Below, one piece after another: positions 15,512 to 53,128 of a DNA stretch of 53,227 nt (its first letter is position 1; each line of letters starts with the position of its first letter). Below the pieces are notes generated by a model, which worked only from the letters and a program-made list of their open reading frames with translations, ran no database searches and was not told the origin of the DNA. The stretch lies in the NCBI GenBank assembly GCA_014161675.1, contig GCA_014161675.1_4760.2; one strand, 5' to 3'. Made by a program: the position numbers and the translations under genes. The stretch is from a phage.

Positions 15512-15624
15512 AATCACCTCTCATAATTTCACGCTGTTGTGTCAACATTTTTCGTGGTTTGCTAATTCTATACATTGTAATAGCATAACCAGTGCAATTT
15601 TCAATGATTCATCATCTTTCATAA

Positions 15625-15957: not shown

Positions 15958-15969
15958 TGTATAATCTCC

Positions 15970-16302
15970 TTACAGATGAAAACCTGTTACGATCACCGCA
16001 TCGATCTTACCGCTAGGAATAAACGGTTCGCCCTCTTTTATTTCAACTTTGAATTGATGCCATTTCGCTAATACTTCTTCCGGTACACCCAGCGATTCGG
16101 CGTCTGCTTTAGTTTCATCCATAATCCAACTAGGCTGCATGAGAGCATAGTTTACATAGTCCATTTCTGGGGTCATGTCATCAATGTTAATATATTTGCA
16201 ATTGACGCGTTTCAGAATTTCAAATTCTTTATTGTCAACCTGTACCATGTATAATTCAGTAGTTTCTGGAATCAGTTCCCACACAATCAGTACATTTTTC
16301 AT
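15970..16302 (-). CDS. Hypothetical protein (110 aa)
   Basis: ORF in the early-gene island; tight spacing with neighbours. Confidence 0.45.
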   Translation of the reverse strand: MKNVLIVWELIPETTELYMVQVDNKEFEILKRVNCKYINIDDMTPEMDYVNYALMQPSWIMDETKADAESLGVPEEVLAKWHQFKVEIKEGEPFIPSGKIDAVIVTGFHL

Positions 16303-16310
16303 AGTTCACC

Positions 16311-16679
16311 TCACTTAACAAAGATTTTCTTTAATGCTTTCAGGATCGTTGCTTCCGGCGCTTCTTCCGGTGGAGGAAGCAATTCTACAACTTCCTCTTC
16401 CAACTCGATATAGTCTACCAGATATTCTACATAGAATGCAAGTGCTTCCATGAAATTAAATGCTACATCCGATTCACCACAAGCGCCTACATGCATTGTA
16501 TAAACATCACTGCGATCAAGTTTGTGGATGCTTCCCAGATAGTTCCGGTTATACCAGACTTCCCACACTTTCAGCTTTCCAGTTTTGGTTGCTGTTTTAT
16601 AATCGGTTTCGTAGTTGTGCAATTGACGTTGCAAATCATTGATAATAACACATTTTTCGTAATTGTTTTGAATTTCCAT
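16311..16679 (-). CDS. Hypothetical protein (122 aa)
   Basis: ORF in the early-gene island. Confidence 0.45.
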   Translation of the reverse strand: MEIQNNYEKCVIINDLQRQLHNYETDYKTATKTGKLKVWEVWYNRNYLGSIHKLDRSDVYTMHVGACGESDVAFNFMEALAFYVEYLVDYIELEEEVVELLPPPEEAPEATILKALKKIFVK

Positions 16680-16689
16680 GATGTAATCC

Positions 16690-16881
16690 TCACTTATCGT
16701 TAAGAAGTTCTAAAACTTTCTGTCGTACTTTGTCAATATTAGTTGATTCAAAAACTGTACGGTATCCCCAGCTTTGACCGTATGATCGCGAGCAATCCCC
16801 ATATCCCCATTGTTCAACCTGATAGTATTCAAGGAATGGGTGCTGCCGAACTATGATACCATCGCGATTAAAAATTACCAT
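16690..16881 (-). CDS. Hypothetical protein (63 aa)
   Basis: ORF in the early-gene island. Confidence 0.4.
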   Translation of the reverse strand: MVIFNRDGIIVRQHPFLEYYQVEQWGYGDCSRSYGQSWGYRTVFESTNIDKVRQKVLELLNDK

Positions 16882-16904
16882 AATATAATCCTCACGTCAA
16901 CAAC

Positions 16905-17192
16905 TTATTTTCGGTTGTGGTCACGATATGTTTTAAAATATCCCTCGTACCACGGTAAAATATCTGGATTTTTACCACTATACAGACCTTTAACCATCAT
17001 GTCAATAAGGCCATCTGGTGTTTGATAGTTTCCAGCTTTTATAAGCTCTCTGATTAAAATCTCTCTGTATATGTCTTTCGGATCTTCGTAATCAACTTGT
17101 ATTGTGGTTGTTGTCTCGCTTAATTTGGTTTCTGGAGTATCTTGCATCGCCTTCCACCAATCTTTTGTAATCTTCATGTTATTGAATTGCAT
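16905..17192 (-). CDS. Hypothetical protein (95 aa)
   Basis: ORF in the early-gene island. Confidence 0.45.
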   Translation of the reverse strand: MQFNNMKITKDWWKAMQDTPETKLSETTTTIQVDYEDPKDIYREILIRELIKAGNYQTPDGLIDMMVKGLYSGKNPDILPWYEGYFKTYRDHNRK

Positions 17193-17203
17193 AATTTAAC
17201 CTC

Positions 17204-17962
17204 TTACTTGCAAACGTATTGATCTACATCAATTGCTCCACCGAATGTGGGATGACGTTTTTCAAATCGAATAGTTCCGTCGTTTGGTTCGAAAACGGAG
17301 TATTCATATAGATCTTTCTTGCCAACATTCTTATAAAACCCGCCTTTAGTCATAACGGTTTCTTGTACGTTTGCTTTGTGTACGTTGTATTCGTCAATGT
17401 ATACAAAATCAACCATCTTCCCATTTTTAATGGTTACTTTAAGATCTCCTGGTTGATTTCCATATTTGGCATACAGTGGCGCTTCTTTAATTTTTGTGGA
17501 AATTCCATCTTTCATACTCCACTCATAACGAACGGTGCATTGATAGGTAAAAGTTTCGACCTTCGGTTCTTCCACCACTTTTTCTTCCTGTTTCGGTTGT
17601 TCTTCGTCAACCTTCACGGAAGTCTCTGAATCGCTTTCTGACGCAGTTTCTTCTTTAGGTAATACATTCATCAAGTTTTGGATTTGAGCGTTGTATACAG
17701 CCTCCAGTGGCTGAATCTGCCCGATATTGATCATTGTATCACGAACAGTTTTATTCCAGTTGCGTTGCTCTTGTTTCAGAGACGGATCAATCTTAACAGC
17801 TTTAACATATACTTCATGAAGTTTAGAGTCCAGTGCGGAGATTGACTCATTAGCACAAATAAACTTCTCTGATTTGGTAGTAGCTTTAGCGCAATCAAAG
17901 GACGCAGCATTAGCACCGAAAGCAGTAGCGGAAAGAACGATAGCAGCGATAATGTTTTTCAT
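17204..17962 (-). CDS. Secreted LprI-like protein (DUF1311-like N-domain plus Cys-bracketed C-terminal domain)
   Basis: 252 aa. Signal peptide MKNIIAAIVLSATAFGANA. Then ASFDCAKATTKSEKFICANESISALDSKLHEVY...QEQRNWNKTVRD, matching the DUF1311/LprI N-domain pattern. Ser/Glu-rich linker, then a C-terminal domain bracketed by Cys (YQCTVRY...QYVCK). Confidence 0.7.
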   Translation of the reverse strand: MKNIIAAIVLSATAFGANAASFDCAKATTKSEKFICANESISALDSKLHEVYVKAVKIDPSLKQEQRNWNKTVRDTMINIGQIQPLEAVYNAQIQNLMNVLPKEETASESDSETSVKVDEEQPKQEEKVVEEPKVETFTYQCTVRYEWSMKDGISTKIKEAPLYAKYGNQPGDLKVTIKNGKMVDFVYIDEYNVHKANVQETVMTKGGFYKNVGKKDLYEYSVFEPNDGTIRFEKRHPTFGGAIDVDQYVCK

Positions 17963-17996
17963 AATATATTCCTCAATGTTTTGTCTTGATGGGAGT

Positions 17997-18025
17997 ATCT
18001 TACTACTCCCTTAATCCGGTGTCAA
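17997..18025 (-). promoter_or_regulatory. Sigma70-type early promoter
   Basis: Minus strand TTGACA (18020-18025), 17-bp spacer, TAAGAT (17997-18002). The -10 lies inside the inverted repeat GGGAGTA/TACTCCC. Followed by GAGGAA and the ATG at 17962. Confidence 0.6.
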
Positions 18026-18032
18026 CTACTTT

Positions 18033-18245
18033 TTAATTTTTACCCGCTCGTGCATTAATACGCATTTTCTGCATAGCCATGATCTGGCTTACAGCTTCTT
18101 CTTTACGTTCTTGCGTGATAACGTGACCAGATTCCGCAAACTCTCCCGCAACTTCTTCTACGATCTCGCGAACTTGAGAACGTCCAAAGATGCGGTTTCC
18201 TTCGTAGCTCATAAACTCTGTTACTACTTGCTCGATAGATTTCAT
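18033..18245 (-). CDS. Hypothetical protein (70 aa)
   Basis: ORF with AGGAGA upstream and its own promoter. Confidence 0.5.
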   Translation of the reverse strand: MKSIEQVVTEFMSYEGNRIFGRSQVREIVEEVAGEFAESGHVITQERKEEAVSQIMAMQKMRINARAGKN

Positions 18246-18275
18246 GTGATTCTCCTTTCGTTTGTTATGGGAGTA

Positions 18276-18304
18276 TGTTACTACTCCCTTATCTTTACGT
18301 CAAC
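18276..18304 (-). promoter_or_regulatory. Sigma70-type early promoter
   Basis: Minus strand TTGACG (18299-18304), 17-bp spacer, TAACAT (18276-18281), embedded in the same GGGAGTA/TACTCCC inverted repeat. Confidence 0.6.
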
Positions 18305-18310
18305 TAGTTT

Positions 18311-18553
18311 TTAGAAATTTTTCGCTTCTTCTTCGGTCATCATCACCGCGCATTCGTGCATAACTTTGAAAACCGGGTCAATCATATCGAATGCTTCGCG
18401 AGACAATTTACGAGAAGCGATTTTGATTGCTTCAACGTCTTCTACTACAGGAACAAAAACAGTTTTCAGTTCGTCGAGCACGGCAGCTTCTTTTTCATTC
18501 AGGAAGATTCCAGCGTCGTACAATGCAACTTCGATAACATTAACTTTAACCAT
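18311..18553 (-). CDS. Hypothetical protein (81 aa)
   Basis: Start placed at the ATG (MVKVNVIEV...) preceded by GGAGGAAAT. The track's longer ORF starts at a TTG inside the promoter and is rejected. Confidence 0.5.
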   Translation of the reverse strand: MVKVNVIEVALYDAGIFLNEKEAAVLDELKTVFVPVVEDVEAIKIASRKLSREAFDMIDPVFKVMHECAVMMTEEEAKNF

Positions 18554-19769: not shown

Positions 19770-19973
19770 TTATTTCCTCTCTGAAAATTCTTTCATCAAG
19801 CTGTCGATCTTTGCTCTGTGTTCTGGTGTGTTTGTCATCTCTGCTAATTTGCTCAGAGATTCAATAGTGATCCGGTTGGCTTCTTCCATAGTCTCAACGA
19901 CCATTGGCACAATCTTTTTATTGTTGTACACAAATGCAATATAACCGCCTTCTGGATATTCTTTCATAATCAA
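19770..19973 (-). CDS. Hypothetical protein (67 aa)
   Basis: ORF; its start overlaps the gene 52 stop (ATGA). Confidence 0.45.
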   Translation of the reverse strand: MIMKEYPEGGYIAFVYNNKKIVPMVVETMEEANRITIESLSKLAEMTNTPEHRAKIDSLMKEFSERK

Positions 19974-21331
19974 CCCTTCTTAAGTTCTTTAAGATCTTTC
20001 TTATATTCCTTCATTGCGGTCGTCTTTGTCCAATACTCATATTCACTATGATGTTTATCGGCATCTTTGACCAGTCGATCATACTCTTCTTGAGTAACGC
20101 TATACAATGGCATAGAAACTAGCTTATCGGCGTATGGACGCAGTTTTTCATGTCCATTGATGGATTGCATTACCTCGGCCTTTTTCTTGCCCTGTAGCTC
20201 GATTTCGCCCTTAATTACGCGGTCGATAAATTCGGCTTTAGCCATTGCATAATTGTATGCTTCCAGCGTTTCCGCTTGCATCAATTCAATGCGTTTATCG
20301 ACATACCCTAATCGGATTTCGACGAATCGACGGATCAGATCGCTCGCTTTCTCGAATACTTCTACTAAACCACGTTCATTAACCACTACGATATTCTGGG
20401 CTACTAACTGTGTTAGTTTAAAATCCTTCATGATTTGCTCATGTCGAGCGGATTCATCTTCGCTTTTGAAATAATCGCGTTTCAGTGTTACTTCAAATCT
20501 GAATCCATCCTTAGAGCAACGGTCATTATATGAGACAATCAGATCTTTTTCTTCCAGTGCATCCAGTACCGCTACATATTCTTCACGGTCGAACTTATAA
20601 GGAACTTCTGATATTGTCAGTTTAGTCTTGCCGTTTAGTTCATATGTACCCTCAAGAATCACACCATCGCGATCATCTCTCGGGATAACTTTACCCGTGA
20701 ATTTCGGGAATTGAACATTAGGTTCTTTATCCAGTTTTCCGGCAAGTGCTAGCTCTGTGCATTCAATGAGGCTTTCCAGTGAATGCGGTAAAATGTCAGT
20801 TTTATACCCTGAAGCAATACCACTAATACCATTAGCCAATACCATTGGCACAACTGGCAAGTAGAACGCTGGCGGGATGTGTTCCAGATCTTCGTGCTTA
20901 GGTGCGCAATTCATATCTTTATAGATTTTAAAGAAGTTTTCATGCACACGAGCAAAGATATAACGTGCCGCTCCTGCTTTCTGGACTAAACGCGATCCGA
21001 AGTTACCTTGACCGTCAAGTAGTGGAGTATTATTGCTCCATGTATTCGCCATGAGTGATCCGGCTTCTACGGCATTAGTTTCGCCGTGGTGATACCCCAA
21101 CTCAGCGACACCAGATCCAATATCTGCCATCTTACGGAATTTCTTACGGTCGCCTTTACTCTTTTGCAAAGCACATTCCATAACAAAGCGTTGCACTGGT
21201 TTAAGCCCATCCACTAATTGAGGAATCCCGCGTTCCTCGGCAGAATAGATCGCATATTCCTTAGCTTCATTATGTACAATGCTTTCAAGGCTGCGGTAAG
21301 TAACTGATTTATTCATCTTCACCTCATACAC
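19970..21331 (-). CDS. 52: DNA topoisomerase II medium subunit gp52
   Basis: 453 aa; recalled T4 gp52 similarity (DGLKPVQRF, GYHHGE, MANTW...PLLDGQGNFGSR, ARYIFAR, IPPAFYLP, KIMKDF). Confidence 0.92.
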   Translation of the reverse strand: MYEVKMNKSVTYRSLESIVHNEAKEYAIYSAEERGIPQLVDGLKPVQRFVMECALQKSKGDRKKFRKMADIGSGVAELGYHHGETNAVEAGSLMANTWSNNTPLLDGQGNFGSRLVQKAGAARYIFARVHENFFKIYKDMNCAPKHEDLEHIPPAFYLPVVPMVLANGISGIASGYKTDILPHSLESLIECTELALAGKLDKEPNVQFPKFTGKVIPRDDRDGVILEGTYELNGKTKLTISEVPYKFDREEYVAVLDALEEKDLIVSYNDRCSKDGFRFEVTLKRDYFKSEDESARHEQIMKDFKLTQLVAQNIVVVNERGLVEVFEKASDLIRRFVEIRLGYVDKRIELMQAETLEAYNYAMAKAEFIDRVIKGEIELQGKKKAEVMQSINGHEKLRPYADKLVSMPLYSVTQEEYDRLVKDADKHHSEYEYWTKTTAMKEYKKDLKELKKG

Positions 21332-21686
21332 GCTTACAAATCACATTCTTTACTTTATCAGATTTATCAGCCCAATCCAATAGCCATTTTAACGGAAGGA
21401 TTGACACAATAAACGGGGCAGCAATCAAAGCAAACATGATACACCTGATAATCAGGAAAACGCAAGTGACAAAACTAGCGATAGTGATCCCGACAAAACA
21501 AAATACCATAGAAAACAGAGTAATGATATAGAAAGGCCAGAATACCCACTCCCGCATCTTAACGCCTTTGTATTCTCTGAATTGCTTAAAATCTACAAAC
21601 AACTCTCGGATAGACGCGTACAGGACCGAAAAATCATCTTTCATTGCTCTGAATGAGCAATCTTCTATTTTAGAATGACCTAGCAT
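21324..21686 (-). CDS. Small integral membrane protein (120 aa)
   Basis: Two long hydrophobic segments (FWPFYIITLFSMVFCFVGITIASFV, IMFALIAAPFIVSILPL). Confidence 0.45.
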   Translation of the reverse strand: MLGHSKIEDCSFRAMKDDFSVLYASIRELFVDFKQFREYKGVKMREWVFWPFYIITLFSMVFCFVGITIASFVTCVFLIIRCIMFALIAAPFIVSILPLKWLLDWADKSDKVKNVICKRV

Positions 21687-21688
21687 TA

Positions 21689-21982
21689 TTAACCGCCTTT
21701 AACCATTGATACAGGAATTGTTTTCTGATTTGTGTATAAGTGGCCTACTTCAATTTTTTCTTGAATCACCACGACGTTACAATATCCACTGTCTTTAAGT
21801 TTTCTGATAATGACTCGCTTTTGTTCGTCGGTGATAGGATTGACTGTTCTCACCAATTCACCGCAAATAATAGCACCATCTTTACAATTACCAGTAACTT
21901 TCATGCTACGACCGTGAACAACAACCACGTCACCGTAAATCACATTTTCGTCGTCGTATTTGGTAATAACCGTGACCGTCAT
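21689..21982 (-). CDS. Hypothetical protein (97 aa)
   Basis: ORF with GAGGGAAT upstream, preceded by the GGCCGC-GCAAA-GCGGCC hairpin. Confidence 0.45.
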   Translation of the reverse strand: MTVTVITKYDDENVIYGDVVVVHGRSMKVTGNCKDGAIICGELVRTVNPITDEQKRVIIRKLKDSGYCNVVVIQEKIEVGHLYTNQKTIPVSMVKGG

Positions 21983-22027
21983 AATGTATTCCCTCTAAGA
22001 AAGGCCGCGCAAAGCGGCCTATGTTGA

Positions 22028-22354
22028 TTATTGTTCTACAGTATAACCGTTGTTTTCAAGCCATGCAATAACAGTCTTTTCGCCAATTTCATCGAGCATT
22101 TCATCAGCGCCATATTCTTTAATGAAAGTCGATGGATCATTATTGCTTACTACGTGCTGGATCACAACATGTTCAGGAATTGCGTCTAGTAGTTCGCTAT
22201 GATCATACTCATTAACGATATCTTCAACACTAACATTATTAACCAAATCAACATCATCCATAGTCACAGTAACGCGACCGGACGGACGCAATGAATATTG
22301 GCTACTTTCAACTTCAACATGTGCACTTTCGCAAGTAACTTTCATATCAACCAT
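22028..22354 (-). CDS. Hypothetical acidic protein (108 aa)
   Basis: ORF immediately downstream of rIIB. Confidence 0.45.
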   Translation of the reverse strand: MVDMKVTCESAHVEVESSQYSLRPSGRVTVTMDDVDLVNNVSVEDIVNEYDHSELLDAIPEHVVIQHVVSNNDPSTFIKEYGADEMLDEIGEKTVIAWLENNGYTVEQ

Positions 22355-22368
22355 AATTAATTCCTCTG

Positions 22369-23370
22369 TTAGTAATGGCTAAAACCTTCGGTTACATCTT
22401 CAACCACATAGTAACGATGACAGCGCATTTTGGCATTCGCATAATCTTTCGGGATACTTACAACGTGACGCGGATCAACTTTACATTTAATGATTCGGCC
22501 TCGTCCACCGCCATAGTGCGGAATATAGTGTTTAGCTGCAACGTGGAGGCCATTAGAGCAAGTGCGATCATCATCTGGGTCCACGTCTTTACGATTCATT
22601 TTAACCGTGCGACCTGGGCTATTATCAAACGTATGCGTAAAGAAATCTTTATAATCAACATCAACACGTTTCCATGCATAGAAACAACCATCTTCCACGA
22701 TCTCAATGTCGTTGTGCTCTAAGAAGTCAAATAGACGATCTACGGCCTTACGGCTAGGGTTTTTCTTGCACTTCTCAAAGAAGTTCAGATAGTGCGTATA
22801 TGGCTTATTCTCTTTAATCGACTCCACAACTCGACGAGTCAGATTATTATCAAGAACAATATTATGATAATACACAATACCATTTTCGATACGGAAAGCT
22901 CCGTGATAATATACTTCAACCGCTTTCTTAATGTCAATCAGCGTAATAGCTTTGATGAAATCATTATGTTTAATCGCTTCCAGTGCTTCATTAAAGTTAA
23001 CATGCGATGGATCAGCAGTATAAACAATGTCACCACATGTAATAGTAATAAACTTAGTTGAGGCTATTGCTACGATTTTTGAGGAAGTAGTCACGGGCTT
23101 TTTTGCGCGTTCACCGCCTTTTCCTTTACTGGTTTTACGGCGTGCTTTACGTTTTTCTAGTGCCTTGCGACCTTCCGCTACTGCGTCTTTCTGAATCAGT
23201 AATACACGGGAGGCAGTACGACGAGATACCCCAAATGCTGCCGCAAGTGCTTCGCGGGTAGTAAACTTACCTTCGCCCCACTGTTTAGCCAGTTTGATTT
23301 GTTTCGCAGAATCCAGGCATTGAACGTTACGGTCAGAGACGGTGATTTTTGCTTTAGTCATAGTATTCAT
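22369..23370 (-). CDS. rIIB: rIIB protein
   Basis: 333 aa; recalled T4 rIIB similarity (N-terminal HTH, RLFDFLEHNDIEI, FYAWK, TFDNSPG, CSNGLHV, HPRDVVSIP, YANAKMR, YVVEDVTE). Confidence 0.88.
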   Translation of the reverse strand: MNTMTKAKITVSDRNVQCLDSAKQIKLAKQWGEGKFTTREALAAAFGVSRRTASRVLLIQKDAVAEGRKALEKRKARRKTSKGKGGERAKKPVTTSSKIVAIASTKFITITCGDIVYTADPSHVNFNEALEAIKHNDFIKAITLIDIKKAVEVYYHGAFRIENGIVYYHNIVLDNNLTRRVVESIKENKPYTHYLNFFEKCKKNPSRKAVDRLFDFLEHNDIEIVEDGCFYAWKRVDVDYKDFFTHTFDNSPGRTVKMNRKDVDPDDDRTCSNGLHVAAKHYIPHYGGGRGRIIKCKVDPRHVVSIPKDYANAKMRCHRYYVVEDVTEGFSHY

Positions 23371-26740: not shown

Positions 26741-26768
26741 ATTATAGAGAATCTCCCTTGTATGTCAA
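26741..26768 (-). promoter_or_regulatory. Sigma70-type early promoter
   Basis: Minus strand TTGACA (26763-26768), 16-bp spacer, TATAAT (26741-26746), flanked by the GGGAGA/TCTCCC inverted repeat. The -35 overlaps the stop of the HNH gene. Confidence 0.6.
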
Positions 26769-27328
26769 CTAAAATTTAAAGATGCAAACTCCCCGTGATG
26801 AATTTTTGCATATTCATCATATGCTCTAGCGGCTTCCTCCTGAGTAGCAAACGATCCTATGTATTTTCTGTATCCGTTTATCCTTATTTGTGCTTGCCAC
26901 GGTCTTTTGCTAGATCCTTTGCGATGAGTAACACCATTATATATGCTCGTGCACCCGTCCATTTTCTTTTTATTGTACATGTTTTGTTGTTGTGTTGCCT
27001 CCCGTAAATTTGGTGGATTGTTGTTTTCTGGATTCCCGTCTATGTGGTCTATTACCTTAACCTGTGTTCCATATTCAAGAAACCAGACAATTCTATGTAC
27101 AAGATATGTAGATGTTCTCTTTTTAACCTTATTGTAAACATCTATTGCCAAATGACCGTAATTTAACTTTTTTGTTTTTACTTTATCACCGACTCGGTAG
27201 AAATATCCCTCTGGTAGACCATTAAAAGACGGACTATTTGTTTTGTGATATAGAACACCTTCCGTGTGTTCAAATCTGCGTTTTAATTCCTCTTGAATTT
27301 CAGTATTCCAAAATTTCGCACTTTTCAT
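26765..27328 (-). CDS. HNH homing-type endonuclease with C-terminal AP2 DNA-binding domain
   Basis: 187 aa; HNH motif region HRIVWFLEYG...VIDHIDGNPENNNPPNLREAT, then an AP2-like segment YNGVTHRKGSSKRPWQAQIRINGYRKYIGSFATQEEAARAYDEYA. Stop/start are adjacent to gene 39. Confidence 0.85.
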   Translation of the reverse strand: MKSAKFWNTEIQEELKRRFEHTEGVLYHKTNSPSFNGLPEGYFYRVGDKVKTKKLNYGHLAIDVYNKVKKRTSTYLVHRIVWFLEYGTQVKVIDHIDGNPENNNPPNLREATQQQNMYNKKKMDGCTSIYNGVTHRKGSSKRPWQAQIRINGYRKYIGSFATQEEAARAYDEYAKIHHGEFASLNFS

Positions 27329-33614: not shown

Positions 33615-34139
33615 TTAGTAGCCGCGTTCTTGACGGGCGAAGTTTTCAGCATTTTTCAGATAGTACAGAATAAAGAGTTCTTGAGCGTCAATACCCAGCG
33701 GGATCATCTTTGACAGAATGAAGTGGATCGCGTCCACAAATTCAAATTTCACTTCAAGCTGATCTTCCGGTGACAGTTCAGAGAATTTACGCGCTCGCGC
33801 TTCCCCGTGGTTCTTTTTCCACATTTTCCAGATTGCACTTGCATCTTTACCATTGGACATTCCACCCAGCGATGTGTAAAGCTCTCGTGTTTCGTCTGCG
33901 ATAGCGTCATCCATCCGTTGCATCCAATCCAGCATTTCACCGCAAGTCTCTAGCTTAGTTGGATTTGGGACCCAATCAAATTTTTCGGATAATGCAACCT
34001 GCAAACCAGTTTGCATTTCGAGCATCACCTGAAACGGATCTTTACCTTCTGCAATAGCGTGATGATATGCGGCGATAGCCGCGTTAATATCTTTTTCGTT
34101 AACCAGACCAGCACAAGAATTAAATTCTGACATATTCAC
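33615..34139 (-). CDS. 56: dCTP pyrophosphatase gp56 (MazG-like)
   Basis: 174 aa; recalled T4 gp56 similarity (EGKDPFQVMLEMQ, PTKLETCGEMLDWM, SPEDQLEVKFEFVDAIHFIL, LYYLKNAENFARQERGY). Confidence 0.8.
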   Translation of the reverse strand: MNMSEFNSCAGLVNEKDINAAIAAYHHAIAEGKDPFQVMLEMQTGLQVALSEKFDWVPNPTKLETCGEMLDWMQRMDDAIADETRELYTSLGGMSNGKDASAIWKMWKKNHGEARARKFSELSPEDQLEVKFEFVDAIHFILSKMIPLGIDAQELFILYYLKNAENFARQERGY

Positions 34140-38585: not shown

Positions 38586-39656
38586 TTATGCTAACATATC
38601 TTCGATTTCTTTGTCAACTGCTTCGTCGCTGATCACTTGCCCCAGCTTATAATGATCGTTGATTGCTTCGTTAAACTTATCGTTTGTCAGAAGTGGTTTC
38701 CAGAACTCAATGCTATTGGTTTCTTTAGCACGGAACTTGCGTTCTTCGGTTTCCATCTCTCCGGTCTCGGTATTTAGGATTGAACGAGAATACCAGCCGT
38801 TTGACGGTTTCACTACCCAGCCTAACTCTACAGCCAATTCCAGCAAGCCGGAATAAGGATCGATGCCACCGCTAAATGTTACGCTAATCGGGAACTTCGA
38901 TTTTTCTTTAACGGTTCGTGATTTTTCCGCATTCAGGATAAAATCATAACCAGTAATTTCGGTTCCTTCTTTCTGCTGACGACGACCAATAATGAAAACT
39001 TCATTGGCTGAATACATCGCGCCCGTACCGCCGGACATAACGGTCTTACTAAACATTTCTTGCGTTTCGTAAGTGTGGTTAATAGCGATGCACGGGATAT
39101 CATTCATAGTCAGATACGGTGTCACCATACGGAACAAGCCTTTAAGTGCTTTAGCTCGCGTCATATCCTGTGCGGATTTCTCATTAATCGCGTCTTCAAC
39201 TTCTTTTTTACTTGCTAAGTTACCGATTGAGTCAATAAAGATGATCACTTTATCTTCACGGGTAATTTGCTCAAGCTGGTTCATGATTTCAAATTTAAGT
39301 TCTTCGATGTTCTTGATTGGAACATGCACCACGCGATCAGGATCTACACCCATAGATTCAAGATAAGCGGATGTAATACCGAACTCAGAATCAAAGAACA
39401 AACACGCCGCATCAGGATTCTGTTTCATGTATGCACTAACACAGGTTAATCCCATGTTTGATTTAAAGTGCTTAGACGGACCAGCAAAGAAAATCAGACC
39501 AGATTGAAAGCCTTTTTTAAGATCACCCGAAAACGCAATATTCAGCATCGGGATCTTAGTGCGAGTATTTGTTTTTTCGTTAAAGAAGCTGGATTTAGAC
39601 AGTACCGCAGTAGTTTTCAGGGTAGAGTTCTTTTTCAGTTTTTCCAGTACAGACAT
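38586..39656 (-). CDS. uvsX: UvsX recombinase (RecA-like)
   Basis: 356 aa; recalled T4 UvsX similarity (KIPMLNIAFSGD, FAGPSKHFKSN, FFDSEFGIT, FIDSIGNLASKKE, IAINHTYETQEMFSKTVMSGGTG, KSRTVKEKSKF). Confidence 0.93.
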   Translation of the reverse strand: MSVLEKLKKNSTLKTTAVLSKSSFFNEKTNTRTKIPMLNIAFSGDLKKGFQSGLIFFAGPSKHFKSNMGLTCVSAYMKQNPDAACLFFDSEFGITSAYLESMGVDPDRVVHVPIKNIEELKFEIMNQLEQITREDKVIIFIDSIGNLASKKEVEDAINEKSAQDMTRAKALKGLFRMVTPYLTMNDIPCIAINHTYETQEMFSKTVMSGGTGAMYSANEVFIIGRRQQKEGTEITGYDFILNAEKSRTVKEKSKFPISVTFSGGIDPYSGLLELAVELGWVVKPSNGWYSRSILNTETGEMETEERKFRAKETNSIEFWKPLLTNDKFNEAINDHYKLGQVISDEAVDKEIEDMLA

Positions 39657-39667
39657 TATTAATACCT

Positions 39668-39856
39668 CTATTCAGTTAATCCGTAATACTTTAATTGCTT
39701 CATTGTTATTCGATCTTTGTAGTGCTCTTGAATTAACTTTTTCATCGCATCAACATCGATCGTCACAAATACTTCGTTGCTGTGATTTCCGTGAACTTTC
39801 TTGAAATGCTCTATGCCTTCCTCACGTTCACGTTTAATCTTTTCAATGTCTCTCAT
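39668..39856 (-). CDS. Hypothetical protein (62 aa) in the uvsX-43 gap
   Basis: Start set at the ATG (MRDIEKIKRER...) after GAGAAAT. This is the only ORF where T4 carries beta-gt, 42 and imm. Confidence 0.4.
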   Translation of the reverse strand: MRDIEKIKREREEGIEHFKKVHGNHSNEVFVTIDVDAMKKLIQEHYKDRITMKQLKYYGLTE

Positions 39857-39900
39857 CGTATATTTCTCACGTTGGCGGGTATCGTCACCCAACACCCGCC

Positions 39901-39928
39901 ATTATACACACTTTATCTTAAATGTCAA
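39901..39928 (-). promoter_or_regulatory. Sigma70-type promoter overlapping the end of gene 43
   Basis: Minus strand TTGACA (39923-39928), 16-bp spacer, TATAAT (39901-39906); the leader contains the hairpin GGCGGGT-13 nt-ACCCGCC. Confidence 0.5.
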
Positions 39929-42596
39929 ACAGGTCAGTCAGAGAAGCAACTTTCTCATATTGCAGCTTTGCAGCCGTGGTAATGTTCTCCAGTGGTTTGA
40001 CGAAAGTCTTATTAAACAACAAAGGCCAGTCCAACCACTTCAACACCTCTGATTCAATTTCTGGTGGAATACGAGTACCGGACAACCAACCAAAACAGAT
40101 TTCTCCAAACGGATTTCGATCTTTAAGCGGTACAATCATAACCTTCTCGCCCTCACGAATCGGATCTAGTCCGAATTTTCGAGCATTACGATTATAACAC
40201 AATACACTCTTAACCGCATACGGACAGCCCTTAATCGGATACCCGTTTGAATCGCTGTATTTCTGTAGGTTGTTTGCAGATGATACCGCAGCAACCTCAA
40301 GATAATCAAGTTTTCTAAATTCTTGCTCAAAAATACCGTAGTATTCCTGCAATGACTCTTCACCTTCCTGCAACATACGGCGAATACATTCTTTCAGTGA
40401 TTTCTGACATGCTTTAGGGGTGGAGCTACGTTGCGTTTCCAAGCCCATGATTTTTAGCTTAGGTTCAGCAAAGCGCGTTCCTTCCATATCCCAAACATTA
40501 AGAGCATAACGCTTTTTGCCAGTCCAGAATCCACCGATACCCGCAGATTTCAACGGAGGACCAGCAATTGCCTCACGGTCCATAAACATCAAGTGCTCAT
40601 AGTTGTTCATGTACTCGCATAACTCGCGATATCCCTTGTCGATAATAGGTTCCATTCGATGTTTACCGAAATTATCAAGGAAGTCAACAAGTTTTTCGGT
40701 ATCGTCGAAACGGTCTTCCCCGCCAACCTTATCAACAACATTGTTAACCAGCACATAAACGGAGTCAGTATCACAATAACGAACATATGCAAAATCGGTT
40801 GTTCCGCAAAGCTCGTTTAAGTATTCGTTAATCTTACGCTCAATCCACTGAATTGCAAGCTGACCAAACAAGGTGATCGCACTAGCGTTACGGAGATCAT
40901 AAAAACGGAATTTAGGATTCCCCAACGCACCATAAAGGGAGTTGATCAAAACTTTACGAGAAAGCTGGTTTGTATTGCACAAGATCGACTCGTCTTTACA
41001 TTCTTCCAGCAATTTCTCTAAGGCATCTTTACTTAATTCAGAAAGCATCGATTTAAACGCTTCATCAAAGTCGTGACGCACTTCAACGCTATAGCTAATG
41101 GTCCCCCCATAAACATGATTTTCATCGTGTAGAATCGCTTTACATAGTTCAGCATTGCGATCACATGCCAACATCATGTTTTTGTACTGCTTACGCTGAT
41201 CGAATACCTTTTTAATCTCAATCGGTACGATACCATGAATATCTTTTCGATACATCCATCCGTTAGGCGAGCAAGAATACTCATCACTCGGACGTGGTGC
41301 AGTTTTATTGATATACTCGTGCATCGGTGCAGCATCAAAAGATCCGGCGATTGTTTCAGGCGAAATATTAACCTGTCGAATAATAGATGGATACAGACTT
41401 GTTAAGTCAAAGCTCATCATCCAACGGTAAGCATTAGGTACTGGCTCTTTTACAAATGCGCCCGGATAAGTCTGCTTAGGCTGTATCTTGTTCTCCGGTA
41501 CTACTTTACCCTCAGCTTTCAGAGATCCGAAAATAATAGCATCCCATACTTTCATCGGGTTATAAACATGGTTAAATTTAATCTTTGCATAGAAACATAG
41601 ACTATACACAAGATCGATAAATCCACGCTTTTTATCAATCGCCAGCACACGATCAACGTCGCCGATGTTATAATCGATGTAAAGTTGATGGTTATCATCA
41701 CGCAATTTCTTTAACGGACCATCATAATCAACCTTACCGATTCCTGTCTCATATTCAGCAACATAATCTAACGCATATGTTGGTTGAGTCGTAAAGCTAA
41801 ATTTCTTGTACAGGTCAATATAATCAAGGCTTTCGATCCCCATGATCGTAAATGCTTCACGCTCGTTACCAAAATCATCCTGTGAGATTCGGGATTTAAT
41901 CTTACCGCACGGGCTTAGACGGTTAGCGGTTCTACTTCCGAACTTATTACTGATACGTTTAATGATATATGGAATATCGAATGTTTCTGTGTTCCAGCCA
42001 GTGAAACCAACGGGTCGGTTTTCCTCAAAGAATCGGATGTATTCTAACAGCAATTCATCTTCTGTGTCATAGACGTTATAAACAACGCGCTCTACAATAT
42101 CAGGTCGAAGAATAGACTTGCTAGATTCCCAGATTTCACCGTTTTTTCCTTTCAAATCAAATACAAAGAAACGATCATGTACGGAATCATAATGCGTAAT
42201 TGCATCGATAGGATATTTCGCTTCTTCTGGTTTAGGAAATTCTGGGGCAGTGACCTCGATATCAACCCATGCTACACGGATTTTATTTCGGTCATATCGA
42301 ATCTCGCCTTTATACGTATCAGACAGATAGGAGATGATAAAATCATCCATCCCTAGCGCCTCTTGCCCCATTTCTCCCATCTTTTTACGCCATTTGTTGG
42401 CCTCGTTCATAGAGGGGAATTTTTTAGCAATGCAAGGCTTGCCATAGATATCTTTATAATTCGTAACCATACCAGGCGCGGCATGATGAAATAAAGTTGG
42501 CGTATATTCAACGTAACGCTCTTGTTCTTGTCCAGCATCATCAATATAACGCTCGTAGATCTTATCACCTACTCGCTCACATGACAGAAAATACAT
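39918..42596 (-). CDS. 43: DNA polymerase gp43 (family B)
   Basis: Recalled T4 gp43 similarity throughout (ERYID, KFPSM, DIEVT, FTGWN, SLYPSIIRQVNISPETI, YCDTDSVYV, KKRYALNV). Start set at the ATG at 42596 preceded by GAAGGAG; the track's GTG extension is rejected. Confidence 0.95.
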   Translation of the reverse strand: MYFLSCERVGDKIYERYIDDAGQEQERYVEYTPTLFHHAAPGMVTNYKDIYGKPCIAKKFPSMNEANKWRKKMGEMGQEALGMDDFIISYLSDTYKGEIRYDRNKIRVAWVDIEVTAPEFPKPEEAKYPIDAITHYDSVHDRFFVFDLKGKNGEIWESSKSILRPDIVERVVYNVYDTEDELLLEYIRFFEENRPVGFTGWNTETFDIPYIIKRISNKFGSRTANRLSPCGKIKSRISQDDFGNEREAFTIMGIESLDYIDLYKKFSFTTQPTYALDYVAEYETGIGKVDYDGPLKKLRDDNHQLYIDYNIGDVDRVLAIDKKRGFIDLVYSLCFYAKIKFNHVYNPMKVWDAIIFGSLKAEGKVVPENKIQPKQTYPGAFVKEPVPNAYRWMMSFDLTSLYPSIIRQVNISPETIAGSFDAAPMHEYINKTAPRPSDEYSCSPNGWMYRKDIHGIVPIEIKKVFDQRKQYKNMMLACDRNAELCKAILHDENHVYGGTISYSVEVRHDFDEAFKSMLSELSKDALEKLLEECKDESILCNTNQLSRKVLINSLYGALGNPKFRFYDLRNASAITLFGQLAIQWIERKINEYLNELCGTTDFAYVRYCDTDSVYVLVNNVVDKVGGEDRFDDTEKLVDFLDNFGKHRMEPIIDKGYRELCEYMNNYEHLMFMDREAIAGPPLKSAGIGGFWTGKKRYALNVWDMEGTRFAEPKLKIMGLETQRSSTPKACQKSLKECIRRMLQEGEESLQEYYGIFEQEFRKLDYLEVAAVSSANNLQKYSDSNGYPIKGCPYAVKSVLCYNRNARKFGLDPIREGEKVMIVPLKDRNPFGEICFGWLSGTRIPPEIESEVLKWLDWPLLFNKTFVKPLENITTAAKLQYEKVASLTDLFDI

Positions 42597-42628
42597 AATA
42601 TAAACTCCTTCATTTACGAAAGACACTC

Positions 42629-42657
42629 ATTATAGGGGAATCGACCTAGTTTGTCAA
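42629..42657 (-). promoter_or_regulatory. Sigma70-type promoter upstream of gene 43
   Basis: Minus strand TTGACA (42652-42657), 17-bp spacer, TATAAT (42629-42634), in the regA-43 intergenic region. Confidence 0.55.
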
Positions 42658-44654: not shown

Positions 44655-44683
44655 ATTATATTAGTCGGTGTAGCTGGAGTCAA
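44655..44683 (-). promoter_or_regulatory. Sigma70-type promoter at the end of gene 45
   Basis: Minus strand TTGACT (44678-44683), 17-bp spacer, TATAAT (44655-44660). Confidence 0.55.
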
Positions 44684-49462: not shown

Positions 49463-50488
49463 CTAACTTTTTGCGCTATTTACCTCGGCTAAAAGTTCAT
49501 CAGAAATACGCTTGACCGCCGCAAGTTCTTCCGGTTCTAGGTTTTGTTCTTCCAGATATTCATAGACCATCTGAATAGTGCTTTTAACTTCAATAACACC
49601 TGTTTCCTGTGATGCGCTACTCTCCAGCTTATGGACCACTTTTAGCTTGTGTACAACGGCCTCTAACGCGCTTTCTAACTTAGTTAACCCATTATCAGCG
49701 ACCGTTGCGATAAGACGCACACTAAGCCCCTTAAAGCGTTCTACATCGATTTTATCATCTGACGGGTAAGTGATACGCACATGATAAGTTTTCTCATTCT
49801 GGATAAACTCCTTTTTGTGTGTATCGGTATCGAATACCCAAAAACCACGCGGATCGTTTTCGTCACCAGCCGTTAGTGTGTATGGTGTACCAATATACGT
49901 TACGTTACCGCCATCACTGATAGTATGAAAGTGACCAGAAAACACTTCACGGTATTTCTTGAGGAAGTCCGCGCTATAACCTTCTGATTTTAGCCCTTTA
50001 TAGAAATAGTAACCGGACAATTCCCAATGGCCTACACAATATTCGCTGAATGAGTTTTGAATAAACTCTAAAATCTCTGATTTATTGTCATCACAAAACC
50101 ACGGGAACAGATCAAATGATACACCATCAAAGGTAACTGTTTCCGGTTTATCGATAACCTTAATGCAATCATACTGGCTTAACACTTCACGCGGTGCGTT
50201 AGGCTGGATCTTATTGCGCTTAAACATATCATGATTCCCGACCGTGATATAACAAGTAATACCAGCCTCTTCCAGTAACGGAATGACCTTAGTGCGGTTA
50301 AATTTCATGGTTTCATGGGTAATTGCTTTTCGGCAATCAAACCAATCTCCTGTTTGAATCCATGTCTTAATATTATGCTCTTTGGAGTATTCAACCGCTT
50401 TCTTGATGGTATCAAGAATATACTCGTGCACCCACGGATCATCGCCACCGATACCAGTATGCAGATCACCTAAAAGCAAAATTTTCAT
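49463..50488 (-). CDS. 47: Recombination nuclease gp47 (Mre11/SbcD-like)
   Basis: 341 aa; calcineurin-like phosphoesterase motifs (LLLGDLHTG, QTGDWFD, GNHD, GHFH). Confidence 0.92.
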   Translation of the reverse strand: MKILLLGDLHTGIGGDDPWVHEYILDTIKKAVEYSKEHNIKTWIQTGDWFDCRKAITHETMKFNRTKVIPLLEEAGITCYITVGNHDMFKRNKIQPNAPREVLSQYDCIKVIDKPETVTFDGVSFDLFPWFCDDNKSEILEFIQNSFSEYCVGHWELSGYYFYKGLKSEGYSADFLKKYREVFSGHFHTISDGGNVTYIGTPYTLTAGDENDPRGFWVFDTDTHKKEFIQNEKTYHVRITYPSDDKIDVERFKGLSVRLIATVADNGLTKLESALEAVVHKLKVVHKLESSASQETGVIEVKSTIQMVYEYLEEQNLEPEELAAVKRISDELLAEVNSAKS

Positions 50489-50578: not shown

Positions 50579-50866
50579 TTACAGCATACTTAATACCGTT
50601 TGCCGTGTACTAATCCACATAGCAGAAAGCAGTTCTGGCGTGTGTGGCTGTTTGTAGATATCACGTAATTTTCCGATAGCGTAGATATACGCATCACGGT
50701 TATCATCGATGATAGCTTGTTCAGCCCACCGCTTAAGGCGTGCAATCTCTTGCGAGTTCTTACGCAAGATCTTTTCCGCTTTCTTAGCGGCTTTAGCCTC
50801 TAGTTCTGCTTGTACTTTGTCTACTTCATTCACCGCAATCTGGTCATGCTGTTCATCGTAAGTCAT
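50579..50866 (-). CDS. Hypothetical protein (95 aa)
   Basis: ORF between 55 and 47. Confidence 0.45.
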   Translation of the reverse strand: MTYDEQHDQIAVNEVDKVQAELEAKAAKKAEKILRKNSQEIARLKRWAEQAIIDDNRDAYIYAIGKLRDIYKQPHTPELLSAMWISTRQTVLSML

Positions 50867-50867
50867 G

Positions 50868-51101
50868 TTATTTTCCTTCTGGGATATAGTCGATGATTAA
50901 AGAAAATTCATCTTCTGATACATTATAGCTATGTGAGATTGTACCCGTCAAGACCTCAAGATCCGGTGATTTGATATTGCACGGATCGATAATCACCGGA
51001 ACGCCGCAATCTCTCAAAAATAATTTGGCGAAATACGGCACGAGGTCAGTTTCAAACTCTGCTTCTTCCAGCAAACGGGAAATGTTAATTTTCAATCTCA
51101 T
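50868..51101 (-). CDS. Hypothetical protein (77 aa)
   Basis: ORF occupying the slot where T4 carries alpha-gt. Confidence 0.4.
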
Positions 51102-51618
51102 AAAATTGGTCCAGGCTAGGCAATTCCTCGGTCAATACATCTTCAACCTTTGGCGCTTTCGGTTTATTGACCGATTCCTCGTAGTTGTTGATTTTATCGT
51201 AAATGTCCTGTATGAATGCCTCATCAGCAATCTGGCACATATCAGCGTCGCGTTCGTCATATACATGATGCACAAAATATTTGTATTTTGCGGCTGTCGC
51301 TGTTCTCTCTTTTTTAATGCGCTGTACAAAAGCATTAAAGCACGCTTGCGTGATGTAAGCATGAGGATTTTTATACTTTGTCTCGTCAAAATTAATCAAA
51401 CCCTTGACCGCCGCTTCGATTCCGTCGTCGATCATTTCTTCGCGCCATGTTTGACTATAACCAGAAAAGTTAAAACGACGTGATAGATTTTTGGAGATTT
51501 GCATAATTGCTAGGCCGATTTGATCGCTCATTGGAACTTGCCGACCTTCTGCTGCAATTTGTTGTTTCCAACGGCAAATTTCTTCGTAAAGCTCTTTATT
51601 GTTTACATAATCAGACAC
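51085..51618 (-). CDS. 55: Late-transcription sigma factor gp55
   Basis: 177 aa; recalled T4 gp55 similarity ([51 protein letters not shown]). Confidence 0.92.
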
Positions 51619-51658: not shown

Positions 51659-53128
51659 CTATTCCCCATTGCCATTATACTTTCTTTGCTTAGTTATCCA
51701 CACTCTAACCATCTCTACAGATTCGCCGTCAGACGGATCAAGAGTTTTTCCTTTTTTCTTCATGCGGTACTTAAATCCGTTAAATCTTGCATTCTCTTGC
51801 TCGTTAAAGTCGAACATCTTTTTAAATGATTTTCGCCCTTTACGCTCACCACATTCTAGCGGAATCATTCGGTCTGTTATTACATTGGCATTAGGTAGAA
51901 ACGTTTTTAGATAATCCACCAACGCCCAATCAGGAACATATAGATTAACATTCTCCTTGCTCTCGTTGTCTCTCAGGTTACAACGCAAACATAATTGAAA
52001 TGCTGGTTCCAGATAATCAGACACATGACGCGCTTTCAAAAACTCGTTTGTCGGGAGATCACAACTATTAGCAAGACCTTTTAAAATATCAATCTCCCAT
52101 CGTTGAGGGTTAAAGCTGAACATCACAGCAACATTTTTATGATGAATGTAAGAGTTAAGACCATAAGATCCGTAAGGTATCCGCTCACCAATACCATTTG
52201 TGCACGCTTCACGGTCCCGATTCACGGTATAAATGAAGTCATCACCACATTCATTTTTAACCATATCAACAAGACGTTCAAAGGTATTGTTTGTTTCTGA
52301 CTGGTGACGCGACCATCGTTCGGAGTCCGTCATAAGGATGATGTTAACTCTATCTGTATTTTTATACTCTTTGAAATATAGTCTGGATTCTAGCGCACTC
52401 GGAACAAAATCGCAATTTGCATAGTATCGTAGATACTTCCCACTATATGTATCAAAGAGATTTGCACATGCTATCGTAACCTTTTTAAAGTCTCCCCACG
52501 TACCGTGTTTGTTATCGTTCAAGAAAACAATTTTCGACCCATTCTTCCGGTGTCCTTCGTTATGTTTTACCATAACGTTGATTTTCTTCTCTAATAACGC
52601 CTCATAAAGCCCTCTAAGAGAAGAATCGATCATATCAGTACCATCCTTCGCACTTTCTATCTTTTCTTTGATAGCGGCCTTCTCAGAGTCTTTTAGAACT
52701 AAGTTCTGTAGGCATTCCGATTCGTCGGCGATTGGTTCGCAATGCTTCGTGATAAGTTCAAGATTAGACTTAAACGGATACTCATTAAATTCAACCAGTT
52801 GAGGAACTTCATCAATGTAAAGAGCATAATCACCAAACATTTTTGAACGTTCCATATTAGATAACGCTGTATGTGTAATGAATATCACATCAGCACCGTC
52901 TTTAACTGATTGCATTATCGACGCTTGCACTGTCTTAAGGCTTCTTAGTCGTGTGCTATCAATCAAGACAGCACGACCGCCCATTCTTTTAAACTTATTG
53001 TAAGATTGTTCACTTAAAACACGAGATGGCGAAGCAATAACCGCTTTTTCTTTTGTCTCTAGGACGTGGGAAAGTATAGCATCAGTTTTCCCCGCCGCTG
53101 GCAATGCGATTAATGTTTCAATCTTCAT
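51659..53128 (-). CDS. Uncharacterised P-loop NTPase (489 aa)
   Basis: N-terminal Walker A LPAAGKTDAIL and Walker B-like ALYIDEVPQ about 95 residues later; the large C-terminal region has no motif I recognise. Its ATG overlaps the stop of the upstream gene (TAATG). Confidence 0.55.
   Translation of the reverse strand: MKIETLIALPAAGKTDAILSHVLETKEKAVIASPSRVLSEQSYNKFKRMGGRAVLIDSTRLRSLKTVQASIMQSVKDGADVIFITHTALSNMERSKMFGDYALYIDEVPQLVEFNEYPFKSNLELITKHCEPIADESECLQNLVLKDSEKAAIKEKIESAKDGTDMIDSSLRGLYEALLEKKINVMVKHNEGHRKNGSKIVFLNDNKHGTWGDFKKVTIACANLFDTYSGKYLRYYANCDFVPSALESRLYFKEYKNTDRVNIILMTDSERWSRHQSETNNTFERLVDMVKNECGDDFIYTVNRDREACTNGIGERIPYGSYGLNSYIHHKNVAVMFSFNPQRWEIDILKGLANSCDLPTNEFLKARHVSDYLEPAFQLCLRCNLRDNESKENVNLYVPDWALVDYLKTFLPNANVITDRMIPLECGERKGRKSFKKMFDFNEQENARFNGFKYRMKKKGKTLDPSDGESVEMVRVWITKQRKYNGNGE

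Follow-up and report, generated by a model that had tools for sequence, protein, structure and literature searches.

An RB49-like phage segment that lacks the T4 cytosine-modification genes and retains gene 56

That RB49-type phages are relatives of T4 whose cytosine is unmodified has been known since the late 1990s and 2000s. Among the T4-like phages, gene 42, denB and alc are limited to the T-even phages, JS98, RB69, CC31, the Acinetobacter phages and some Aeromonas phages (Petrov 2010, Table 4, PMC2993671). By contrast, 56 and denA are present in nearly all T4 relatives (Petrov 2010, PMC2993671). RB43 and RB49 have only homologues of DenA and of the dCTPase-dUTPase (Nikulin and Zimin 2021, PMC8056088), and retention of DenA has been described for phages of the RB43, KP15 and KP27 type (PMC9960720; PMC8056088). 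The genus Krischvirus is tabulated as dCTPase+, hmC-, denB-, denA+, ndd- and alc- (PMC12115623, Table 4). The DNA chemistry has also been addressed directly. HpaII and NheI cut RB49 DNA and not T4 DNA (Yaung 2014, Fig. S1, PMC4041780), and the Krischvirus TB34 has canonical cytosine as determined by LC-MS (PMC13390438). The absence of modification genes from RB49-like phages is therefore an already published property and is not presented as new here.

In T4, the genes from uvsX to 43 are ordered uvsX-segA-b-gt-42-imm-imm.1-43 and those from 47 to 55 are ordered 47-47.1-a-gt-mobB-a-gt.2..5-55. The uvsX-43 interval contains b-gt, ba-gt and 42 in CC31. In RB69 it contains a hodCMP synthase together with arabinose genes, and JS98 has related genes there. 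With its modification genes, this interval is 3.3-6.7 kb long in T4, CC31, RB69 and JS98. In 44RR, gene 42 directly adjoins gene 43 and lies between 40 and 43, and in RB69 imm is found near gene 61. RB49 and phi1 also contain PeSL (promoter-early stem-loop) elements, which are reportedly the subject of Arbiol et al. 2010 and Comeau et al. 2014. These elements consist of a near-perfect sigma-70 promoter and a G_N-loop-C_N stem-loop and are located in variable regions (PMC4122927).

The window as part of a Krischvirus genome

We analysed a stretch of phage DNA of 53,227 nucleotides that we call the window. Megablast searches matched it in three large segments to approximately 60 Krischvirus genomes, RB49, Phi1, JSE, ECD7, kaaroe, FL38 and GoldenSnicker among them, that are 97-98.8% identical to and collinear with it. 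RB49 itself is 98.0-98.5% identical over collinear segments of 25 kb and 12 kb. The first 25 kb of the window is 95% alignable with other Krischvirus records at 96-97% identity. Overall, the closest relative is kaaroe, and no record identical to the window was found among the database matches. At positions above approximately 27.3 kb, the RefSeq annotation of RB49 was transferred to the window by a constant offset. The window contains a run of genes comprising gene 32, tail-fibre genes, 52, rIIB, rIIA, 39, dda, 56, 61, 41, uvsX, 43, 45, 46, 47 and 55, and ARAGORN found no tRNA genes in it. Its G+C content is 40.7% and that of RB49 is 40.4%. The Krischvirus isolates of one survey were described as having no tRNA genes and 40.5% G+C (PMC7552041). 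Identity and synteny with RB49, the absence of tRNA genes and a G+C content of approximately 40.5% place the window in an RB49-like phage of the genus Krischvirus ("pseudo-T-even").

The uvsX-43, 47-55 and 52-rIIB intervals

The initial annotation had given the T4 layout of these intervals, correctly when set against the T4 gene order, and had described the gap between uvsX and 43 (39657-39917, 261 bp) as holding only a 62-aa ORF and a promoter. Both are present, and the gap additionally contains a stem-loop (Table 1). The 62-aa ORF had no Pfam or NCBIfam match and matched over its full length phrog_12120, a family with no assigned function. Its sequence is conserved at 95-100% identity in 59 Krischvirus records, and in the records listed the ORF lies just downstream of gene 43, as in the window. 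The -35 hexamer of the promoter is located inside the last codons of gene 43, the promoter overlaps the gene 43 stop codon, and the RB49 annotation contains a hypothetical early promoter at the corresponding site (RB49 record). The stem-loop begins 1 nt past the -10 box, folds as RNA with a predicted energy of -21.5 kcal/mol, and is identical in sequence in RB49. A terminator scan of the gap found no terminator because the stem-loop has no T-run.

Like the PeSL elements of RB49 and phi1, the element in the window has a perfect sigma-70 promoter followed by a G-rich/C-rich stem-loop. It is present as a single copy that flanks the 62-aa ORF. With both the promoter and the stem-loop in place, the gap element is, at the level of its sequence, of PeSL anatomy. 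Its location in a variable interval, beside an ORF that is small and lineage-specific, is consistent with ORF-cassette recombination by PeSL elements.

The spacing between uvsX and 43 is 79 bp in RB43 and 74 bp in KP27, compared with 261 bp in the window. We propose that the uvsX-43 interval is a variable cargo slot of T4-like genomes that is nearly empty in three non-modifying genera (the RB49 type, RB43 and KP27). In the window, the only occupant of this slot is a small early gene preceded by a putatively mobile promoter/stem-loop (PeSL) element. The near-empty gap of the window fits this general pattern.

The other two intervals were also as previously claimed. The 47-55 interval (596 bp) had been said to hold only small ORFs, and the two that it holds are homologues of a-gt.4 and a-gt.5. 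Compared with T4, the genes missing from this interval are 47.1, a-gt, mobB, a-gt.2 and a-gt.3. The statement that no denB- or ndd-like genes are recognisable between 52 and rIIB was upheld by tblastn, Pfam and PHROG searches. In tblastn searches, none of the three lineage-specific ORFs found there resembled T4 ndd, denB, ac or 52.1. They had no Pfam match and were placed in PHROG families 16033, 14759 and 14049, all of which have no assigned function.

Table 1. Coordinates of features in and around the three intervals and of gene 56 in the window.
Feature	Coordinates	Strand	Remarks
Gene 52 (topoisomerase II medium subunit)	19970..21331	-	ORF; RB49p269
Three orphan ORFs (120, 97 and 108 aa)	21324..22354	-	52-rIIB interval; T4 has ac, stp, ndd and denB there
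rIIB	22369..23370	-	ORF; RB49p273
Gene 56, all-alpha NTP pyrophosphatase (T4 dCTPase-dUTPase)	33615..34133	-	Start ATG of the RB49 annotation
uvsX (RecA-like recombinase)	38586..39656	-	356-aa ORF; corresponds to RB49 uvsX, RB49p024
62-aa early ORF, homologue of RB49p025	39668..39856	-	Sole gene in the uvsX-43 gap
Stem-loop GGCGGGTGTTG...ACCCGCC	39874..39900	-	27 nt; directly after the -10 box; stem-loop half of the PeSL-type element
Sigma-70 early promoter	39901..39928	-	TTGACA 39928-39923, 16 nt, TATAAT 39906-39901; 12/12 consensus
Gene 43 (DNA polymerase)	39918..42596	-	ORF 39918-42626; RB49 annotation 15793-18471 mapped by offset
Gene 47 (SbcD-like nuclease subunit)	49463..50488	-	341-aa ORF; RB49p039
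a-gt.4 homologue (DUF2654)	50579..50866	-	tblastn with T4 a-gt.4, E 1.6e-11; Pfam DUF2654, E 1.3e-21
a-gt.5 homologue (DUF5491-like)	50868..51101	-	tblastn with T4 a-gt.5, E 1.9e-7; phrog_1169; overlaps the start of gene 55
Gene 55 (late sigma factor)	51085..51618	-	ORF; RB49p043

Modification genes, restriction sites and gp56

We searched the window and the complete RB49 genome by tblastn with 26 T4 proteins at E values of up to 10. No match to b-gt, a-gt, alc, denB, ndd, arn, imm, imm.1, ipI, segA or mobB was found in the window or in the whole of RB49. The T4 gene 42 query matched nothing in the window, and its sole match in RB49 was a weak one to the td paralogue (E 0.008). A second search covered the region of kaaroe outside the equivalent of the window and added as queries the RB69 5-hodCMP synthase, b-gt and ba-gt from CC31, and gp42 from CC31 and 44RR. 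The same absences were observed in this part of kaaroe, where the added queries from RB69, CC31 and 44RR matched only td. The gp42-type queries likewise matched only td in RB49 and nothing in the window, and the T4 and CC31 glucosyltransferases had no significant match in the window, RB49 or kaaroe. Homologues of dam, gene 1, cd and denA were found in the genomes of the relatives, with denA outside the window; in RB49 they are 45%, 36%, 56% and 49% identical to T4, respectively. Measured against a T4-type hmC system, gp42, the glucosyltransferases and alc, denB, ndd and arn are absent and gp56 is present.

The initial annotation had left two alternatives: either the modification genes are elsewhere in the genome, or cytosine in this phage is unmodified or modified in a different way, with some other role for gp56. 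The first was not borne out, with gene 42, glucosyltransferases, alc and denB found neither in complete RB49 nor in the rest of kaaroe. The second is supported by these absences, by the published RB49 digests and by restriction-site avoidance.

Individual proteins of RB49 were also considered. RB49p189 is annotated as "Dcm" in kaaroe and was considered as a 5mC methylase that would give differently modified cytosine; it is not a PF00145 protein, and neither Pfam nor NCBIfam gave a match. RB49p143 is a HemK/MTS-type amino-methyltransferase. The 410-aa "td" product of RB49 was examined as a disguised hydroxymethylase and rejected: it matches PF00303 in full, and its motif PFNVASY has the Asn that is specific for dUMP, which indicates that it is a true thymidylate synthase. 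In the window, a Pfam scan of the larger unassigned ORFs revealed a DEAD-like helicase, a CYTH domain and an LprI-like domain, and no transferase or thymidylate-synthase-like domain.

Unmodified DNA is open to type II enzymes and should therefore avoid their sites. We compared the observed counts of palindromic hexamers with a maximal-order Markov expectation, restricting the comparison to C/G-containing palindromic hexamers expected at least 3 times. Of the 49 such hexamers in the window, 19 were wholly absent (summed observed/expected 348/615 = 0.57), and 19 of 3,708 non-palindromic hexamers (0.5%) were absent. Absent palindromes and their expected counts include TCCGGA (20), AAGCTT (15.6), GAATTC (12.4), AGCGCT (12.2) and GGATCC (9.3). 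The whole RB49 genome has no TCCGGA compared with 65 expected and no AAGCTT compared with 37.5 expected. In the first 53 kb of T4, no palindromes were absent (observed/expected 423/456). This measure cleanly split eleven sequences according to gene 42. The five that lack the gene (the window, RB43, KP27 and two metagenomic contigs) had observed/expected ratios of 0.57-0.81 (0.66 for RB43 and 0.78 for KP27) and 1-19 palindromes absent. The six that bear it (T4, RB69, JS98, CC31, Acj133 and 44RR) had ratios of 0.94-1.01 and 0-2 palindromes absent. The avoidance in the window fits DNA that has long been exposed to type II restriction and would speak to the history of the phage, not to its present-day virion chemistry. 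A limited literature search found no description of restriction-site avoidance in RB49, and we claim no novelty for it.

According to standard textbook accounts, T4 gp56 has a second activity as a dUTPase that supplies dUMP. For a phage with a requirement for dCTP, strong dCTPase activity would be a disadvantage. The gp56 of the window is 49% identical to T4 gp56 (E 2e-60). Its presence had been called correctly at 33615-34139, but the end at 34139 is the upstream GTG of a mechanical ORF, and the ATG gives 34133. The match of gp56 to Pfam dUTPase_2 (PF08761) is marginal, with 24.8 bits compared with a gathering score of 22.9, and the match to phrog_173 (NTP pyrophosphohydrolase) has an E value of 5e-37. 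A PDB sequence search with gp56 found no relative, and we therefore used a predicted structure and a fold search. The AlphaFold model (72 homologues) is all-helical with a pLDDT of 95.5, and its best Foldseek matches, which are weak (E 0.9-5), are DCTPP1 and the Deinococcus dUTPase DR2231. We assign gp56 to the all-alpha NTP pyrophosphatase superfamily, which includes the dimeric dUTPases of C. jejuni (1W2Y) and L. major (2YAY), DR2231, MazG and mammalian DCTPP1; no solved structure could be detected by sequence alone. Across the 72 homologues, the acidic catalytic/metal-binding residues are invariant. Some other isolates encode the same protein with 100% identity, 39 records have one that is at least 99% identical, and homologues were counted in 1,400 phage records. 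A search for the trimeric E. coli Dut found no counterpart in RB49 or the window, where gene 56 is the only dUTPase-like gene found. The dUTPase activity has been called the essential function of gp56 (Petrov 2010, PMC2993671). By homology to T4 gp56, the protein would hydrolyse dUTP and dCTP to the monophosphates. The protein is intact and we read it as a functional enzyme, most likely a dUTPase whose dUMP enters thymidylate synthesis.

Explanations and comparison with related phages

We consider it very likely that the window belongs to an RB49-like lineage that is without the T4 modification module, has ordinary cytosine DNA and keeps gp56 as a dUTPase and supplier of dUMP. Such a lineage would have the T4 replication and nucleotide-metabolism core without the module for cytosine hypermodification and host-DNA discrimination, namely gene 42, the alpha- and beta-glucosyltransferases, alc, denB, ndd and arn. 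With this module absent, the phage would replicate and package DNA with ordinary cytosine. Its cytosines would be unmasked, and the lineage would instead have purged restriction sites from its genome, with Dam and other methyltransferases carried elsewhere in that genome. The retention of gene 56 would be explained by functions of its product beyond that of a dCTPase. This enzyme may exclude uracil from DNA and generate dUMP, and the dCMP that it releases would reach dUMP via cd only and then dTMP via td. Such a dCMP/dUMP shunt could raise the supply of dTTP for a genome of 59% A+T; in host DNA, G+C and A+T are roughly equal. We infer this in vivo role and substrate balance of gp56 from T4 biochemistry, and the absence of the genes outside the window in the source isolate from relatives that are 96-99% identical.

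A different view of gp56 is that in cytosine-DNA phages it is dUTP-specific and has lost the dCTPase activity of the dual-specificity T4 enzyme. A dCTPase of T4 strength would starve a cytosine-DNA phage of dCTP, and the Pfam family to which gp56 belongs is that of the dimeric dUTPases. In an alignment of 11 sequences, a W-V-P motif (residues 54-56 in the window) and a 2-residue insertion after V11 were common to the gene-42-lacking lineages, being carried by both Krischvirus alleles, RB43 and KP27, and six gene-42-bearing phages had neither. In two metagenomic contigs with W-V-P, uvsX adjoins gene 43; the 10-kb flanks of four contigs without it ended before 43. However, intermediates exist (W-VA, W-NP and Y-VP), and the link between W-V-P and the missing gene 42 is confounded with phylogeny and is only a lead. 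The structural neighbours of gp56 include a true dCTPase, DCTPP1, beside the dUTPases, and with cd and td present some flux from dCTP to dCMP would be useful. We regard dUTP specificity as possible but somewhat unlikely.

Far less probable is a cryptic hypermodification, in which hmC or glycosyl-hmC would be made by enzymes among the orphan ORFs that are unrelated to gp42 and the T4 transferases. Such a route might be switched on in some Krischvirus isolates or conditions, with gp56 excluding dCTP and with gp56, gene 1, cd and denA, all of which are retained, as its visible part. Many ORFs have no assigned function, and the Krischvirus SAP was reported with 5-hmdC and alpha-gentiobiosyl-methyl-dC and with sensitivity to cutting by BrxU (2026, PMC13390438). 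Yet SAP is 99.96% identical to its unmodified sibling TB34, its authors found neither a homologue of gp42 or of a transferase nor a SNP that would account for the difference, and its modification profile equals that of seven Tequatrovirus phages of the same collection (PMC13390438). The cleavage of RB49 DNA by HpaII and NheI also argues against such a route, as do the Pfam results for the larger unassigned ORFs of the window and the site avoidance of the lineage, which was seen in 0 of 6 modified genomes tested. Because of the Tequatrovirus-like profile and the long-term site avoidance of the lineage, a mixed stock seems to be the simplest explanation for the SAP signal.

We find it hardly credible that the isolate has undergone a rearrangement and has gene 42 and glucosyltransferases outside the 53-kb window. 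The window is one third of the genome, and accessory genes of T4-like phages do move, such as imm in RB69 and gene 42 in 44RR. However, tblastn detected none of these genes in the whole of RB49 or the rest of kaaroe, both of which are 97-98% identical to the window, and published genus-level surveys concur on their absence. Moreover, heavy site avoidance would not persist in a fully hypermodified genome. That gene 56 is a functionless relic of an hmC-containing ancestor, as its classical hmC-tied role in T4 and the retention of denA, also classed as directed at cytosine DNA, might suggest, is equally hard to believe given its invariant catalytic acidic residues, its near-identity among isolates, its homologues in so many phage records, three non-modifying genera included, and its position as the only dUTPase-like gene in the genome.

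The reading that we prefer, of a lineage with ordinary cytosine and a retained gp56, matters little as a discovery, the gene distribution having been tabulated already (Petrov 2010). RB49-type phages are open to classical restriction-modification and to targeting by Cas9, and are insensitive to type IV, modification-dependent enzymes. They are also capable of generalized transduction, which is relevant to phage therapy. Palindrome avoidance is modestly useful beyond the literature that we found, both as a separation of gene-42-lacking from gene-42-bearing phages that needs sequence only and as evidence that weighs against the hypermodified Krischvirus reported in 2026.

Compared with the hmC system of T4, the window has a homologue of gp56, and homologues of gp1, Cd, Td, Frd and DenA are found elsewhere in the genomes of its relatives. 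The flanking core genes uvsX, 43, 47, 55, 52 and rIIB are in the T4 order. T4 has gp42, both glucosyltransferases, alc, denB, ndd, arn, imm and ipI, whereas the window and the RB49 lineage are without all of these. RB43 (Pseudotevenvirus) and KP15/KP27 (Slopekvirus) resemble the window in having no gene 42, in having uvsX adjoining 43 and in keeping gp56. They differ from it in that their gp56 is only approximately 51-53% identical, the gene order around rIIA-rIIB, 52 and 39 is different, and there is no 62-aa ORF in the uvsX-43 gap. The closest systems are RB49, Phi1 and JSE. RB49 has an HNH-AP2 endonuclease between 47 and a-gt.4 that the window does not have there, and the window has an HNH-AP2 gene, 42% identical to that of RB49, between the rIIA-side ORFs and gene 39. 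In other respects, these phages are like the window in overall identity (97-98.8%) and gene order, in a near-identical uvsX-43 ORF and promoter/stem-loop, in the same a-gt.4/a-gt.5 pair and in the same three orphan ORFs between 52 and rIIB, and the gp56 of RB49 is identical to that of the window.

Gene 56 alleles, insertions and promoters

Two alleles of gene 56, the gene for a homologue of the T4-type dCTPase-dUTPase, occur within Krischvirus. In 39 records gp56 shares 99% identity or more with that of the window, compared with only 60-80% in approximately 20. In MIZ6, gp56 has 69% identity to that of the window, even though the flanking genome is ~96% identical.

The window contains an HNH-AP2 homing-endonuclease gene between rIIA-side ORFs and gene 39, a position at which RB49 has no gene. 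Instead, the HNH-AP2 gene of RB49, which is 42% identical to that of the window, is located between 47 and a-gt.4, where the spacing in the window is only 90 bp. Several Krischvirus records, including kvi, PTE-Eco09, G5211, MIZ4, MIZ5, Cognac, and ECD7, have gene 43 annotated as two parts with ~1.1-1.7 kb of extra DNA that is presumably a mobile insertion. Gene 43 of the window is uninterrupted. The 489-aa ORF beside gene 55 has a match to DEAD/DEAH-box helicases that is barely over the Pfam threshold.

Three minus-strand consensus sigma-70 promoters in the window are probably additional elements of the PeSL (promoter-early stem-loop) type of RB49 and phi1, in which a near-perfect sigma-70 promoter lies directly before a stem-loop. 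There is a hairpin of -13.6 kcal/mol at the promoter before gene 45.

Coordinates of features in the window, RB49 and two other loci
Sequence	Feature	Position	Strand	Remark
Window	HNH-AP2 gene	26765-27328	-	
Window	Consensus sigma-70 promoter	26741-26768	-	stem-loop after promoter
Window	Consensus sigma-70 promoter	42629-42657	-	among further consensus promoters
Window	Consensus sigma-70 promoter	44655-44683	-	stem-loop after promoter
Window	Gene 56	33615-34133		
Window	Gene 43	39918-42596		
Window	489-aa ORF	51659-53128	-	RB49 counterpart RB49p044, annotated hypothetical
RB49 genome	RB49p143	74465-75304		putative DNA methyltransferase
RB49 genome	RB49p189	115890-116606		putative DNA methyltransferase
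RB49 genome	denA (EndoII)	130528-130989		
RB49 genome	td	136870-138102		
MIZ6 (L015)	Gene 56	1501-2019		
Metagenomic contig (L023)	C5 cytosine DNA methylase	15245-16273		PF00145

Nucleotide and DNA-modification genes outside the window

The thymidylate synthase (Td) of RB49 and kaaroe (loci L009 and L002) is 410 aa long and contains an in-frame insert of 136 aa (residues about 118-253) that interrupts the PF00303 domain, has no Pfam match, and is lacking from T4 Td. RB49 retains denA although it is a cytosine-DNA phage and the target of T4 EndoII is cytosine DNA. Two putative DNA methyltransferases are encoded by RB49 in addition to Dam, with no PF00145 C5-methylase among the three; one of the two is labelled 'Dcm' in kaaroe, yet has no Pfam match. 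A metagenomic T4-like contig with an empty uvsX-43 gap carries a C5 cytosine DNA methylase adjoining a fused topoisomerase gene.

T6-like hmC/gentiobiosyl modification has been reported for Krischvirus SAP (OZ034687.1), in which the known genes for it are absent, and its 99.96% identical sibling TB34 (OX001802.1) is unmodified (PMC13390438). Over the first 25 kb, SAP and TB34 are each ~96% identical to the window.

Avoidance of palindromic sites

Across the whole window, 6-bp palindromes containing C/G are strongly avoided, with 19 of 49 missing and an observed/expected ratio of 0.57. There are zero copies of TCCGGA, AAGCTT, GAATTC, AGCGCT, GGATCC, AGTACT, ACCGGT, and CCGCGG in its 53,227 bp. 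GGCC, AGCT, and CCWGG are also depleted in RB49. By contrast, C/G palindromes are at expectation in T4 and five other relatives that bear gene 42 (dCMP hydroxymethylase). GATC occurs at expectation in the whole genome of RB49 (945 observed vs 887 expected) and is strongly depleted in that of T4 (191 vs 566). Dam methylase is encoded by RB49 and T4 alike.
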